DNA from: a virus | Taxonomy: Duplodnaviria > Heunggongvirae > Uroviricota > Caudoviricetes | Strand: one strand, 5' to 3' | IMG/VR virus record: IMGVR_UViG_2724679542_000005 | DNA: 26,995 nt | Part shown: positions 290 to 10,636 of the stretch, piece after piece | How positions within the stretch are numbered: the stretch's first letter is position 1 | How the letters are laid out: every line of letters begins with the position of its first letter | The notes under the pieces: generated by a model | Seen by the model: only the letters and a program-made list of their open reading frames with translations | What the model was told of the DNA's origin: nothing | Database searches by the model: none | Translations under genes and position numbers: made by a program

Positions 290-606
290 GCGGAATTAAA
301 AACGATATCCTGCTGAGAACATAAACACCCACGGATCGAGGCGTACGCTATCATGTTGCTGTGCACCGCCCAGCTTATAATTGGCGGTGGTATCGATATC
401 CATGTACCAGACTGACATGTTTTAAAAAATGCAATAAGACATTGTATCTGAAAGAAAAAACAGGATTTTGAGGCGCTTTTTTATACCGTTTTTCCGTGTT
501 TTTAACTGCCTGATTTTATTGAAATCTTTTTTAGTTTTGCAGAAAGGATTTTTTGCTCGATCGCTTTAATTTTATACATTCCTGATAACGGAAATTTTTT
601 TGCCCG

Positions 607-1797: not shown

Positions 1798-2013
1798 AAC
1801 CGCAGCACGTTCCTGCATACGACGTGTCTGCGGCATAATCCCAATGATTACTCCCTGACAGGATTTGCAGGCCACTCAATATCAGGTGCAGTTGATGTAT
1901 CAACACGATTCAACAATACCCGATATTTATTCCATGCCTCCAGCAACGATCTTTCTTCCTCCGTTGCGATTTCCAGATCTACAGCATCCTGCAGTGGCGC
2001 AATATACTCACTG
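1798..2013. repeat. Direct repeat copy A (~216 bp): tfa 3' end plus downstream hairpin
   Basis: About 90% identical by eye to 2848-3062, including the ccgcagcacgt...acgtg(t)ctgcgg hairpin and the tfa C-terminal coding sequence. Confidence 0.85.
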
Positions 2014-2117
2014 AATTCCTGGATGTAGAACTGTGTGGTGACGGTCTTCCAGCCATTCGGCTCCTGCTGTATCGAAGCATACCAGGCTATTTCAATATCG
2101 CTATGCTGCGGCAGCAT
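1848..2117 (-). pseudogene. Tail fibre assembly gene fragment (C-terminal ~55 aa near-identical to Tfa, diverged N-terminal part, no full-length gene)
   Basis: ORF-track 89-aa product ends ...[51 protein letters not shown], almost identical to the Tfa C-terminus at 2897-3481. Confidence 0.7.
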
Positions 2118-2144
2118 TTAACCCCTTGTAATTCATCGCCATAA

Positions 2145-2173
2145 TTGATTTAATTCACAAATAAAACTATAAC
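2145..2173 (+). promoter_or_regulatory. Candidate sigma70 promoter for the methyltransferase gene, TTGATT-N17-TATAAC
   Basis: Hexamers seen directly; the -10 ends only 12 nt before the ATG at 2186, implying a very short leader. Confidence 0.3.
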
Positions 2174-2185
2174 ACGGTGAAATCA

Positions 2186-2842
2186 ATGAAAAAAAACACA
2201 GATGATGGGGCTAAAATTTACACACCACTTACCCTAAAGCTTTATGACTGGTGGGTTTTGGGAGTATCAAATCGGCTTGCATGGGGATGTCCTACAAAGG
2301 AACACCTTCTTCCACACTTTCTGGAACATGTAGGTAACAACCATCTGGATATTGGTGTTGGAACTGGGTTTTACCTTACTCACGTACCTGAGAGTAGTCT
2401 GATATCTTTAATGGATTTGAACGAAGCTAGCCTGAACGCGGCATCTACAAGGGCTGGGGAATCAAAAATTAAACATAAAATTAGCCATGATGTTTTTGAA
2501 CCTTATCCCGCGGCGTTACATGGTCAATTTGATTCCATTTCCATGTTTTACCTTCTTCACTGCCTGCCTGGAAATATATCTACAAAAAGCTGTGTAATAC
2601 GCAATGCGGCGCAGGCCTTAACTGACGATGGAACTCTATACGGAGCCACAATTCTTGGCGATGGAGTTGTGCACAATAGCTTCGGTCAAAAACTGATGCG
2701 CATTTACAATCAGAAAGGCATCTTTTCAAACACAAAAGATTCCGAAGAAGGCTTAACACATATACTCTCAGAGCATTTCGAGAATGTTAAAACCAAGGTT
2801 CAAGGTACTGTAGTAATGTTTTCCGCTTCAGGGAAAAAATAG
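2186..2842 (+). CDS. Putative class I SAM-dependent methyltransferase (low-GC cargo gene; substrate unknown)
   Basis: ORF track 2177-2842 (GTG); ATG at 2186. Glycine-rich SAM-binding motif I LDIGVGTG; no DPPY/NPPY or PC-type DNA methyltransferase motifs. Lower GC than the structural genes by eye. Arrangement recalls tfaD-ybcY-tfaX of the E. coli K-12 DLP12 prophage (from memory). Confidence 0.7.
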   Translation: MKKNTDDGAKIYTPLTLKLYDWWVLGVSNRLAWGCPTKEHLLPHFLEHVGNNHLDIGVGTGFYLTHVPESSLISLMDLNEASLNAASTRAGESKIKHKISHDVFEPYPAALHGQFDSISMFYLLHCLPGNISTKSCVIRNAAQALTDDGTLYGATILGDGVVHNSFGQKLMRIYNQKGIFSNTKDSEEGLTHILSEHFENVKTKVQGTVVMFSASGKK

Positions 2843-2847
2843 CATCC

Positions 2848-3062
2848 AACCGCAGCACGTTCTTGCTTAAGACGTGCTGCGGCATAATCCCAATGATTAC
2901 TCCCTGACAGGGTTCGTAGGCCACTCAATATCAGGTGCAGTTGATGTATCAACACGGTTCAGCAACACCCGATATTTTTTCCAGGCTTCCAGCAATGAGG
3001 TTTCTTCCTCCGTTGCGATTTCCAGATCTACAGCATCCTGAAGTGGCGCAATATGCTCACTG
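2848..3062. repeat. Direct repeat copy B (~215 bp): 3' end of intact tfa plus downstream hairpin
   Basis: See copy A. Confidence 0.85.
2850..2882. terminator. Long hairpin (ccgcagcacgt ... acgtgctgcgg) between the methyltransferase stop and the tfa stop; possible bidirectional terminator
   Basis: 11-bp perfect inverted repeat seen directly; the T-run on the minus strand is about 10 nt away, so termination efficiency is uncertain. Confidence 0.4.
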
Positions 3063-3481
3063 GCTACCTGCATCAGGCTGTTTTTTGTTTCTTCCGCCTC
3101 CCGGATCCGGAACAGTTTTTCTGCTTCTGCATCTTTCACCCAGGCTGTGCCGTTCCACTTCTGAAACTCCCCTTCCGGCGATAACCAGGTAACATTTTCC
3201 GGTAACGGACCGAGTTCAGAAATAAATAACGCGTCCCCTGACGCTACGTCATAAACCGTTTTACCCCGATGGTCTTCAACGAGATGCCACGATGCCTCAT
3301 CACTGTTGAAAACAGCCACGAAGCCTGCCGGAATATCTGGCGGTGCAATATCGGTACTGTTTGCTGGCAGACCTGTATGAGGCGGAATATATGCATCACC
3401 TTCACCAATAAATTCATTAGTTCCGGCCAGCAGATTATAAATTTTTATGGTCCGTGGTTGTTCACTCATTCTGAATGCCAT
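2897..3481 (-). CDS. tfa: Tail fibre assembly protein Tfa
   Basis: 194-aa ORF-track product matches lambda Tfa from memory; start ATG overlaps the stf stop (TAATG). Confidence 0.9.
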
Positions 3482-6400
3482 TATGCAAGCCTCACAATAT
3501 AGTTAAATGCGATGTTTTTGACGGTGTTTTCCGCGTTACCAGCAGCGTTAACGGTGATGGTATGTCCATGTGAACCAATCGCAACGGAGTGCGTATGAGC
3601 ACCAATACCGACAGTATGTGCGTGTGCACCTGCGCTTGCAGCAGTACCCGATACAGAGTGCGTATGAGCGCCTGCAGAAGAAGTGTTAACACTGTATTTA
3701 GAATAATCAGGTGATCCACTTCCCGGAGCACCACTGGAACCACCTGAAACAAATGTCATCGAATGGGTATGTGCACCGGCTGAAGCAGCCGTACCGCTAA
3801 CACTATGGGTATGCGCACCAGTGTTATTCGTGGATTTAGTGCCGTAATCAAACGACGATGTGGTTTTCGTCCCCAAATCCGTACTGGATACGCTGGCGCT
3901 GTGGGTGTGTGATTTAATGCCGTCCTGTTCCTGAGACAATACGGCTCGATCACTGGCGGGCTTGCCCTTAATCGTCCAGCCACGCATATCAGGGATCACG
4001 CCTGACGGATAAGCGGCTGCAAGTTTCGGGTAAGCAGATTTGTCAAAAGTCTGCCCCTGCATCAGGGCATAACCAGACGGAACGGTATCTGATGGCCACG
4101 GGATTGGTGCACCGACTGGATAAAACTCTGCAGGAGGATGAGCCGAGGTGTAAAGCTGCGCCCACGGCGACCAGTTTGCGTCGGTCGTATCCCGTCGTGA
4201 ACGAATAAATGCCGGAGCATGAGCACCGCTTGTACCACTCCAGCCGATGAGTAACTCACCTTCGCCAACGGCTGTCATCCCTTTCAGGTGAATGATATTT
4301 CCATACGCTGTTGGATATCCGTTGTTATACACCTCGTATAACTCAAGACCTGTTGCCCCCTGCGTATTGTCTGTCAGCGCGGTTACCCGACCTTTTGAAG
4401 ACAGATTAACTGATGATACTGCTGTTCCACCTGACGGTAACGCCCCGATCTCTGATGCCGTTGGCTTATTTCTGGAGTTATAGTCCCTTCGCCAGCCAGG
4501 TGAATAATCTGTTCCGTGATTAATATAGGTAAACTGGGCGTTAGTTGTTCCACCACCAGTGGAGGTGGTCGGTGTGGTAATGCGGATCGTCATCGCTGAC
4601 TTTATCCCCATTACTTCAATGACAGCTCCGGCGAGATGAATATTACCGCAGCCAGTATCAGTAATGATTTTATTATTGCCATAAGACCAGGAACCCTTGC
4701 ACATCCAGTATGGATGGTTAAATGCTCCCTGAGAATCCAGCCACTCGATAAACTGTGCAGTCGTCCAGTTTCCTGTTGTTGTGCTTACTGACCCACCGAA
4801 GGCACGGCAGGCACCAATATTTTTCGTAAAGGTGTCTTTGCCAGGGATATCCGCACCGTTCTGATCTTTCTGCAGACGTTTCTCAGCATTGTCATTGGCT
4901 GCTTTTACTGCCTTTGGCGTTGCCGCCAGCGTTTCAGACGTGCTGTTGGTCGCGCTGCTTAGCTGGATTATCCCTTTCTGTGCTGTCGTTGCATCCTGTG
5001 CGGTGTATTTCCCGTTAGCCAGGTCATACGCGGCCTTAACGGCTTTTGGCGTTGCCGCCAGTGACTCGGAAGTGCTGTTGGTCGCACTGCTGAGCTGTAC
5101 TATCCCCTTTTTCGTCGTGCTCGCATCCTCAAGCGCCACGGCGGATGCAATATCCTCTGCCCGTTTTGCCGCTGTCTCGGCGCGCGTTGCTGCAGATTCC
5201 GCCGTACTTTTGCTCTGAGCTGCCGCCGTCGCACTGCCAGCTGCCTCTGTCGCCTTCGTGGATGCCGTCGTGGCGCTACCCTTCGCTGCTGACGCCTGTC
5301 TGGTCGCCTCATCTTTTGAAGCAGACGCCGATGAGGCCGATGACGACGCCGAACTGGCTGACGATGCGGCAGCCGTTTTTGAGGATTCTGCGCTGGTTTC
5401 CGACGCTTTCGCGTTCGTTTCGGATGTCTTCGCTGCGGAAGCAGACCTCGCTGCTGCGCTGGCCTGTTCAGTGGCTTCGCCAGCCTTCGTTGTGGCTGTT
5501 GAAGCAGACGATGCGGCGCTTTCTGCCGATTTTCCGGCGGCGGTGGCACTGGCTGAGGCCTGCCCGGCACTTGTTGACGCTGCACTGGCAGACGACGCAG
5601 CCGCTGTTTTTGAGCCTGCCGCAGCCGAGGCGCTCTGTCCCGCTGCCGTTTCAGAAGACCTGGCGTTCGTCTCTGACGTTTTTGCCGCCTTCGCGGAATT
5701 TCCTGCCGCTGTTGCCGAGGAAGCTGCGCTACTGGCGCTCGAGGATGCGTTCGTTTCTGATGATTTTGCCGCCTCTTTTGAAGCCGCCGCATCCCGGGCT
5801 GAGGTGGCAGCTTCTGACGCTTTCGTAGTCGCGGTGGATGCAGAAGTGGCTGCTGATTGTTGTGACGCTGCAGCATTCGTTTCTGACGTTTTCGCGGCAC
5901 TGGCACTGGTAGCTGCCGCGCTTTTTGAGGACTCTGCAGCGGCAGCACTTTTTGATGCTTCAGTGGCCTTTGTTGATGCCGTTCCTGCGCTGGAAGTCGC
6001 TGACTGAGCCGACGACGCGGCCTGTCCGGCTGACGTGCTGGCTGCGCGTGCTGAGCCTGCAGCATCAGTCGCATGGGTTGCCGCCTCACGGGCTGATGTG
6101 CTGGCATCACTGGCTGACTTCTTCGCGGCTGCCGTGTTCTGTGCCACCACGGACGCGTTACGCGCCACCTCTTCCACCATCAGCTCAAAACGGCGCAGTG
6201 CCTCCGGACGGGCATCATCCTCCGTCATGGCACCGAGAAAATCATTCAGCGTACCGGGTCGGGAATCTTCATACACGGTGATGGTCCCGGCATGTGACGG
6301 CGGGAATCCTTCCACCAACAGAATAACGCTGTACTGACCGTACTCAACGTCCATGCTGTAACGCCCGGCTTCATCCGGATTTTCAGATGCCAGCGTGTTC

Positions 6401-6504
6401 ACCACCACCGTGGTACTGTTACGTTTTGCTTTCAGCTGGATTGTGCAGTTCTGTACCGGTTTTCCTGTGCCGTCTTTCAGTACACCTGAAATTTTTACTG
6501 CCAT
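3481..6504 (-). CDS. stf: Side tail fibre protein Stf (1007 aa, mosaic; intact reading frame)
   Basis: ORF track 3481-6510; ATG at 6504 gives [26 protein letters not shown]..., the lambda Stf N-terminus; C-terminus ...[31 protein letters not shown] with GAHTHS-type His repeats. Confidence 0.9.
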
Positions 6505-6514
6505 ATTCACCCCA

Positions 6515-6568: not shown

Positions 6569-7168
6569 TCAGAATTTATAACCAACACCCACGATGAACC
6601 CGTCAGTGCGCCAGTCACCACTGCCGGAGCCTTCATAAGCGACATCAATGGCCACGGATTCGGTCGGGTTAAACTGCACGCCAGCTCCCCACGCCAGAGA
6701 CGTGTTGCTGTGGCGACCGTCATCACTTCCGGTCAGCACATCGTGCTTTTTCCCCTTGTTGTCAGTTACGCGGAGATAATCCCCGGAGAAAGTCGACACA
6801 CGGCTGTAAGCCACACCCGCCATCGCATACGCGCTGAACCATTCATTCACGCGCACAGACGGCCCCGCCATTACGCTGAACCAGCGGTTACGAACGGAAT
6901 CTTCATGCCAGCGGGTATCGCTGTAACGGGTAATCTGGCGATTCTTGTCTCCTGCATAGCTGAACGACGTCACCATCCCCAGTGTGTCCGTAAACTCATA
7001 ACGGTATTTCACGTTAATCCCGTTCAGATCATCACTGCCGGGAACGTTCGTCCGGGCATGAAGATACCCCGCGCTCAGCGTGGACTGATGTTCAGACGCC
7101 CATGCAGGCGCACCGGATACGGCCAGACAAATGGCTGCGGACAAAATGGCGGCATAAAGTTTACGCAT
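6569..7168 (-). CDS. lom: Outer membrane protein Lom (Ail/OmpX/PagC family moron)
   Basis: 199-aa ORF with signal-peptide-like N-terminus and C-terminal ...GVGYKF; matches lambda Lom from memory; GAGAGG ribosome-binding site upstream. Confidence 0.9.

Positions 7169-7234: not shown

Positions 7235-10636
<3,402 letters not shown>

Follow-up and report, generated by a model that had tools for sequence, protein, structure and literature searches.

Three kinds of described systems lie close to the gene studied here. Lambda-type morons, or lysogenic-conversion genes, such as lom, bor, and the ompT/appY cargo of DLP12-like phages, are compositionally foreign, sit at the edge of the late region, are associated with H-NS, and are transcribed separately. 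Phage-borne orphan DNA methyltransferases are common, and those of the Dam-like and Dcm-like types are SAM-dependent and lack a cognate nuclease. Small-molecule class I methyltransferases, including JHAMT, BioC, UbiG/UbiE, NodS, bacterial PmtA, DhpI, and BelI/CysG, combine a Rossmann fold with SAM-binding motif I and an acidic residue that ends strand β2. The gene is itself already known. As ybcY, it is annotated in thousands of genomes and is among the commonest prophage cargo genes of Escherichia coli, and the literature we found on ybcY mentions the gene but contains no study of its function.

Here we describe a copy of this gene in a 26,995-nucleotide stretch of viral DNA, referred to as the window. 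A preliminary description, which drew on the DNA sequence alone, had read the gene as an orphan SAM-dependent methyltransferase carried as a moron. Our results support that interpretation, and its object is the long-annotated gene ybcY. The gene shares with lambda-type morons a foreign composition, a place at the edge of the late region, and an association with H-NS, and, judging from its promoter region, would share separate transcription as well; lom itself is carried together with the methyltransferase gene in the window. In contrast to lom, bor, and ompT, which encode envelope proteins with known phenotypes, ybcY encodes a cytoplasmic-type enzyme.

The methyltransferase gene and its K-12 counterpart

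The plus-strand open reading frame begins at GTG 2177 or ATG 2186 and ends at the stop codon TAG (2840-2842). RefSeq places the start at GTG 2177, which yields 222 amino acids. The start at ATG 2186, which yields 218 amino acids and is preceded by a Shine-Dalgarno-like GGTGA, is common to essentially all homologs in our alignment. A run of eight A (2189-2196) directly follows this ATG. The protein is identical to RefSeq WP_000240999.1 and matches PHROG 2132, annotated as function unknown, over its full length (positions 1-218 of 218, E = 3.9e-157). The cluster at 90% identity that contains the identical protein has 6,589 members and is named "class I SAM-dependent methyltransferase."

A search against Pfam methyltransferase families, as proposed in the preliminary description, placed four of them (Methyltransf_12, _23, _25, and _11) above their curated cut-offs. 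Methyltransf_12 (PF08242) scored 37.6 bits against a cut-off of 30 and was matched over profile positions 1-98 of 98. The SAM-binding motif I pointed out earlier, LDIGVGTG, was recovered by a regular-expression match, and its residues D55, G57, V58, G59, T60, and G61 are invariant across 31 homologs. Both marks of class I (Rossmann-fold) membership, motif I and a seven-stranded α/β Rossmann-like fold, were found.

The window and the K-12 ybcY locus share 98.7% nucleotide identity over 743 nt, promoter region included, and their junctions and upstream region align base for base. K-12-derived genomes carry the gene at ~581 kb, in the annotated order nohD, terminase fragment, tfa pseudogene, frameshifted class I SAM-dependent methyltransferase, tfa pseudogene, appY, and ompT, which corresponds to the tfaD-ybcY-tfaX region of DLP12. 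The ybcY/tfaX spacer (PMC3946193) and the ompT-ybcY adjacency (PMC6854850) given in published work agree with these names. In K-12, a 2-nt deletion removes the G of the ATG, and there are a handful of substitutions. The deletion sits at the boundary between the ATG and the run of eight A. The gene in the window is therefore an intact allele of ybcY (b0562), which in K-12 DLP12 is annotated as a pseudogene of a putative SAM-dependent methyltransferase. The possibility that the gene is a frameshifted pseudogene, raised in the preliminary description, thus applies to K-12 ybcY and not to the window copy, which is intact and full length when compared with 30 homologs. The two loci share the flanking order of tfa (tfaD), ybcY, and truncated tfa (tfaX), identical promoter hexamers, and the direct-repeat structure described below. 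They differ in that the start-less K-12 copy lies in a degraded DLP12 remnant next to appY and ompT, whereas the intact window copy belongs to a prophage with full tail and head modules.

The 743-nt segment comprising the gene and its promoter was present in 3,798 of 5,426 complete E. coli genomes (~70%), at a coverage of at least 80%, with identities of 98-100% and up to four copies per genome. The gene also occurs in 14 coliphage records. In phage ev243, it lies close to ompT and an alpha/beta hydrolase gene, so the ompT-ybcY neighborhood of K-12 DLP12 is also found in at least one sequenced lambdoid phage. In phage Kati, it lies in a cargo region between the integrase and an invertase; a nearby 750-nt gene labeled "transcriptional regulator" may be appY-like. 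Copies with ~99-100% identity also appeared in Bacillus and Planococcaceae metagenome-assembled contigs and in a Bacillus thuringiensis plasmid record (HM037272.1), and these most likely reflect contamination or mis-binning rather than real transfer.

Prophage setting, flanking repeats, and expression signals

The window represents the late region of a lambdoid prophage, with terminase, portal, head, and tail genes on the minus strand (Table 1). RefSeq annotates the truncated tfa as a pseudogene without its N-terminus, and its junction is the same as that of K-12 tfaX. To the left of this gene lie a DUF4376 pseudogene or fragment, rha and ash on the plus strand, and the ompW fragment. Related genomes carry the same prophage between yciE, beside the trp operon, and an ompW remnant, and the phage therefore appears to integrate into ompW. 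In the window, the IS1 end abuts the ompW remnant where related genomes carry yciE.

Table 1. Positions of the methyltransferase gene, its signals, and neighboring features in the window
Feature	Position	Strand	Evidence or remark
IS1 end (terminal ~238 nt)	1-238		Matches IS1 copies of thousands of plasmids at 100% identity
ompW 3' fragment, marking the prophage end	296-421	-	Phage appears to integrate into ompW
Left direct-repeat copy (hairpin and tfa 3' end)	1798-2024		Repeat families D1 and D3; aligned with K-12 tfaX and tfaD copies
Truncated tfa, equivalent of K-12 tfaX	1848-2117	-	Caudo_TAP positions 75-130 of 131 only
Alternative promoter-like TTAACC-16-CATAAT	2118-2145	+	Consensus scan, 9/12 positions; site count not above shuffles
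Sigma-70 promoter-like TTGATT-17-TATAAC, assigned to ybcY in K-12	2145-2173	+	Read from the sequence; hexamers 2145-2150 and 2168-2173
Class I SAM-dependent methyltransferase CDS (218 aa), intact ybcY allele	2186-2842	+	ORF, Pfam, PHROG, RefSeq, K-12 identity, AlphaFold2 model
SAM-binding motif I LDIGVGTG (residues 54-61)	2345-2368	+	Regular-expression match
Right direct-repeat copy (hairpin and functional tfa 3' end)	2848-3073		Repeat families D1 and D3; aligned with K-12 tfaX and tfaD copies
Strong hairpin between the convergent stop codons of the methyltransferase gene and tfa	2850-2882		Terminator-like, without a U-tract directly after the stem
Full-length tail fiber assembly gene tfa, convergent with the methyltransferase gene	2897-3481	-	Pfam Caudo_TAP 1-130 of 131, E = 3.2e-45
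Side tail fiber gene stf	3481-6510	-	Late region
lom	6569-7168	-	Late region
J	7235-10633	-	Late region

The methyltransferase gene is bracketed by a ~227-nt direct repeat, the two copies of which share ~90% identity at a spacing of 1049-1050 nt. Each unit consists of the strong hairpin and the last ~177 nt of tfa. The cassette resembles what recombination inside the conserved 3' end of tfa would leave behind. The repeat copies could serve as homology arms that move the methyltransferase cassette between phages, and recombination between them would precisely excise it. We also considered whether the tfa duplication forms an invertible tail fiber segment. This was rejected because the tfa ends are direct rather than inverted, and no invertase was present among the ORFs and Pfam hits examined from the left end of the window to lom.

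Within stf, positions 4800-6200 encode a long Ala/Ser/Thr-rich low-complexity stretch with a GC content of 60-63%, an AT skew of about -0.4, and several long spurious ORFs in the other frames. Near the 3' end of stf, three ~20-nt direct repeats (3584-3777) encode repeated His-rich (S)AGAHTHS(V/M) peptide motifs close to the C-terminus of the fiber.

The methyltransferase gene has a GC content of 41.2% and a GC3 of 35.6%, compared with a GC content of 54.8% for the whole window and with 54-61% GC and 60-68% GC3 for the head and tail structural genes. The spacer on its 5' side (2118-2185) has 29% GC. The base composition of the gene thus deviates from that of the surrounding phage genes, as is expected of a moron, and agrees with both the lower GC content and the moron status that had been ascribed to it.

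Within the window, the candidate promoter noted earlier is no more than a consensus match: our consensus scan found 2 promoter-like sites compared with 2.8 expected by chance from shuffled sequences. Support comes from outside the window. In their genomic SELEX study of RpoD holoenzyme, Shimada et al. list in Table 1 both a holoenzyme-binding site and an H-NS site for the K-12 ybcY/tfaX spacer, with TTGATT-17-TATAAC as the best ybcY promoter (PMC3946193). Both hexamers are unchanged between the window and the K-12 tfaX-ybcY spacer. Transcription from this promoter is predicted to start just ~5-6 nt before the ATG, and GGTGA would be lost from the transcript; the TTAACC-16-CATAAT match would yield a ~35-nt leader that includes GGTGA. 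Either the mRNA has almost no leader, or the gene is really transcribed from the weaker match at 2118-2145. Silenced xenogeneic DNA typically takes the form of AT-rich cargo to which H-NS binds.

The hairpin between the convergent stop codons has a predicted folding energy of -23.9 kcal/mol (z = -5.5) on the plus strand and -28.6 kcal/mol (z = -4.0) on the minus strand. A terminator scan of the window returned no sites, this hairpin included. A 45-amino-acid ORF on the minus strand (2787-2924), labeled "hypothetical protein" or "nucleocapsid protein" in RefSeq, overlaps the hairpin and the 3' end of the methyltransferase gene and is probably a spurious gene call.

Protein fold and family relatives

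An AlphaFold2 model built with 31 homologs (pLDDT 92, pTM 0.88) has a Rossmann methyltransferase core and an N-terminal helical cap. When compared with the PDB using Foldseek, its top matches, at TM scores of 0.55-0.67, were juvenile hormone acid methyltransferase, PE N-methyltransferase, SgvM, NodS, a polyketide synthase C-methyltransferase domain, phosphoethanolamine methyltransferases, and CouO/NovO. Its resemblance to small-molecule methyltransferases is generic only. The structure prediction and fold comparison proposed in the preliminary description therefore gave a methyltransferase fold and no match to a DNA methyltransferase. Sequence searches of the PDB, run both with the protein alone and with a profile of 50 sequences, gave a match confined to the methyltransferase core (residues ~50-155). 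A fold search of the viral BFVD set returned generic methyltransferases only.

Profile searches were similarly generic. The NCBIfam models for BioC, UbiE, UbiG, PmtA, RquA, NodS, and CpaM scored 13-18 bits against cut-offs of 162-390, and none reached its cut-off. For the window protein, the sub-threshold matches were CpaM, RquA, and PmtA (16-18 bits against cut-offs of 175-390). Across 50 family members, sub-threshold matches were most commonly to BioC (36 of 50), with CpaM, UbiE/MenG, RquA, and NodS also among the commonest. The PADLOC defense models gave no significant match; mad2 alone was returned, at 12.8 bits and E = 0.0096, and none of its matched stretches passed individually.

The protein shares with the small-molecule class I methyltransferases the Rossmann fold, motif I, and the acidic residue at the end of β2, which is D77 here. 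It differs from them in that identities are 11-21%, with the similarity limited to core residues ~50-155, and in that its N-terminal cap (YDWWVL..SN..AW.C) and C-terminal third are specific to the YbcY family. Alignment of 50 sequences, down to 34% identity, revealed that Y20, W33, H53, G57, D77, S117, H125, G153, and D185 are invariant, and that Y12, D21, C35, N79, C126, K134, Y174, N175, and N182 are conserved in at least 90%. H125 lies just after β4 and aligns with a His of JHAMT in the phmmer alignment. Many O-, N-, and C-methyltransferases have their catalytic His at this post-β4 position. Conservation across the family extends to a single basic residue, and the conserved cap is aromatic; these features favor a substrate that is small and rather hydrophobic, as opposed to nucleic acid. 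The family is mildly basic (median pI 8.9), which leaves RNA or membrane association possible.

A profile search of 1.84 billion cluster representatives recovered 1,750 clusters at E ≤ 1e-3 and 418 at E ≤ 1e-30, some of them fungal. Species-representative genomes contain 270 stretches that encode relatives, and the 80 best of these come from Enterobacterales, Pasteurellaceae, Pseudomonas, Xanthomonas, and Dyella, among others. Relatives with 50-65% identity occur throughout Gammaproteobacteria as stand-alone genes on the chromosome. For the 80 best loci, we called the ORFs of the neighborhoods ourselves and clustered them by all-against-all BLAST. Among these loci, copies beside tfa or stf were confined to Escherichia, Shigella, and Escherichia albertii. 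In Cedecea and Erwinia, unrelated chromosomal genes surround a solitary copy, and in Testudinibacter a homolog lies next to ompW at the edge of an integrase-bearing element. That ompW is adjacent both in the window prophage and in Pasteurellaceae may be a coincidence. Neighbors were conserved within a genus only (enoyl-CoA-hydratase-like and CorA-like genes in Pseudomonas, ompW in Pasteurellaceae); no neighboring gene was conserved between genera at the 80 loci, and there was no guilt-by-association clue. The methyltransferase therefore seems to work alone. Purifying selection acts on the gene across genera, with a dN/dS of ~0.10 against the Citrobacter and Enterobacter orthologs, at a dS near saturation.

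Two relatives have unusual surroundings. Escherichia albertii NBRC 107761 has two versions of the gene: a phage-type allele with tfa, stf, and lom as neighbors, whose product differs from the window protein by one amino acid, and, on a different contig, a paralog with 65% identity. A distant relative (P0218; L089, 5423-6955) is fused to an uncharacterized N-terminal domain of ~300 amino acids, and its operon partners are LuxE, NifU, cysteine desulfurase, U32 peptidase, flavin monooxygenase, and an MMPL transporter. This operon, a single case, fits small-molecule or lipid chemistry and may be a biosynthetic cluster. The guess that the N-terminal extension is a U32-type domain was set aside, as Pfam gave no confirmation, though the adjacent gene encodes a U32 peptidase.

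Proposed role in the lysogen and alternatives

We consider it probable that ybcY is an H-NS-silenced passenger gene for a stand-alone methyltransferase whose substrate in the lysogen is a small metabolite or xenobiotic. As a moron, the gene occupies the distal end of the late operon, on the strand opposite the tail genes and between tfa and the truncated tfa. In the lysogen, its transcription would be separate from that of the late operon and would take place once silencing by H-NS is relieved. The enzyme would then transfer a methyl group from SAM to a small metabolite or xenobiotic, probably one that is hydrophobic or carries a carboxylate or hydroxyl group, bound under the family-specific aromatic N-terminal cap (Y12, Y20, D21, W22/W23, W33, C35). 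The invariant His125 and Tyr20, and possibly Asp185, would position or deprotonate the nucleophile, presumably with no need for a partner protein. The lysogen, and not virion assembly, would benefit, through detoxification or through modification of a metabolite. We see no sign of an unusual mechanism in the evidence at hand.

Several other roles were weighed against this one. One is that of an orphan DNA methyltransferase, which would shield phage DNA against restriction or have an epigenetic effect; such an enzyme would share motif I with the window protein. However, the protein lacks the catalytic motifs, the target-recognition domain, and the structural matches of such enzymes: regular-expression scans of the protein found neither a [DNS]PP[YFWH] motif, as in catalytic motif IV of N6-adenine and N4-cytosine enzymes, nor a PC dipeptide, as in the PC(Q) motif of C5-cytosine enzymes, in agreement with the absence of DPPY/NPPY and PC motifs noted earlier, and no structural match to a DNA methyltransferase fold or target-recognition domain was obtained. 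An ENV, the other sequence mark of C5-cytosine enzymes, is present at residues 199-201 but is not conserved among homologs. The neighbors within ~5 kb are the IS1 end, ompW fragment, ash, rha, DUF4376 fragment, truncated tfa, tfa, stf, lom, and J, with no nuclease or specificity gene among them; the earlier statements that no nuclease gene is nearby and that a restriction-modification component is unlikely both stand. These results show a non-DNA character and make a DNA methyltransferase extremely improbable. A service to the phage itself, such as methylation of tail fiber or assembly proteins, is scarcely more credible. It would account for the immediate tfa/stf adjacency in E. coli, Shigella, and E. 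albertii prophages, but that adjacency is explained by the duplicated tfa 3' ends as recombination arms rather than by a role in tail assembly. The gene lies on the strand opposite the late operon with its own promoter-like region and a composition foreign to the phage, its orthologs outside Escherichia and Shigella lie away from tail genes, and in ev243 (next to ompT) and Kati it is found among cargo genes.

An RNA (tRNA or rRNA) or protein methyltransferase that alters translation, or that shields RNA from, for example, anticodon nucleases or ribosome-targeting toxins, seems unlikely rather than implausible. The 218-amino-acid AlphaFold2 model has no extra RNA-binding domain, the single conserved basic residue and the conserved aromatic cap argue against it, and RNA-enzyme NCBIfam models matched 2-7 of 50 members compared with 36 of 50 for BioC, all far under their cut-offs. 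Slightly less likely again is that the gene is a functionally inert hitch-hiker in E. coli, kept only by its place between recombining tfa repeats in a region of frequent exchange, silenced by H-NS, and decaying. The lost start codon of the K-12 copy, truncated variants such as a 161-amino-acid cluster (445 members) and a 130-amino-acid cluster (30 members), and the H-NS site in the promoter spacer are consistent with decay. So is the behavior of a K-12 ybcY mutant, which upon Hha overexpression grew like other unaffected prophage mutants, although the K-12 allele was already a pseudogene. However, the intact form dominates, with the 6,589 members of the full-length cluster, E. coli copies are 98-100% identical, dN/dS is ~0.1 between genera with invariant catalytic-type residues, and the gene is still intact in sequenced, separately deposited phages.

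The preferred reading, a stand-alone enzyme acting on a small molecule in the lysogen, can be taken a step further. We tentatively suggest, as a rather long shot, that the YbcY family is a lysogenic-conversion enzyme with a real phenotype, which either inactivates a competitor toxin or antibiotic-like heterocycle or methylates a fatty-acid, lipid, or quinone-type metabolite. Rv0560c and TmtA are stand-alone methyltransferases that methylate and inactivate such compounds. If this were true, ~70% of E. coli genomes would carry a phage-spread chemical-resistance or signaling trait, one that would have escaped notice owing to the dead K-12 copy and to silencing of the promoter by H-NS. The gene encodes a conserved enzyme of most E. 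coli that is carried by lambdoid phages and was probably overlooked because the laboratory strain holds a dead copy. Identifying its substrate would close a small gap in the annotation of E. coli and could reveal a metabolic or resistance trait spread by phages.
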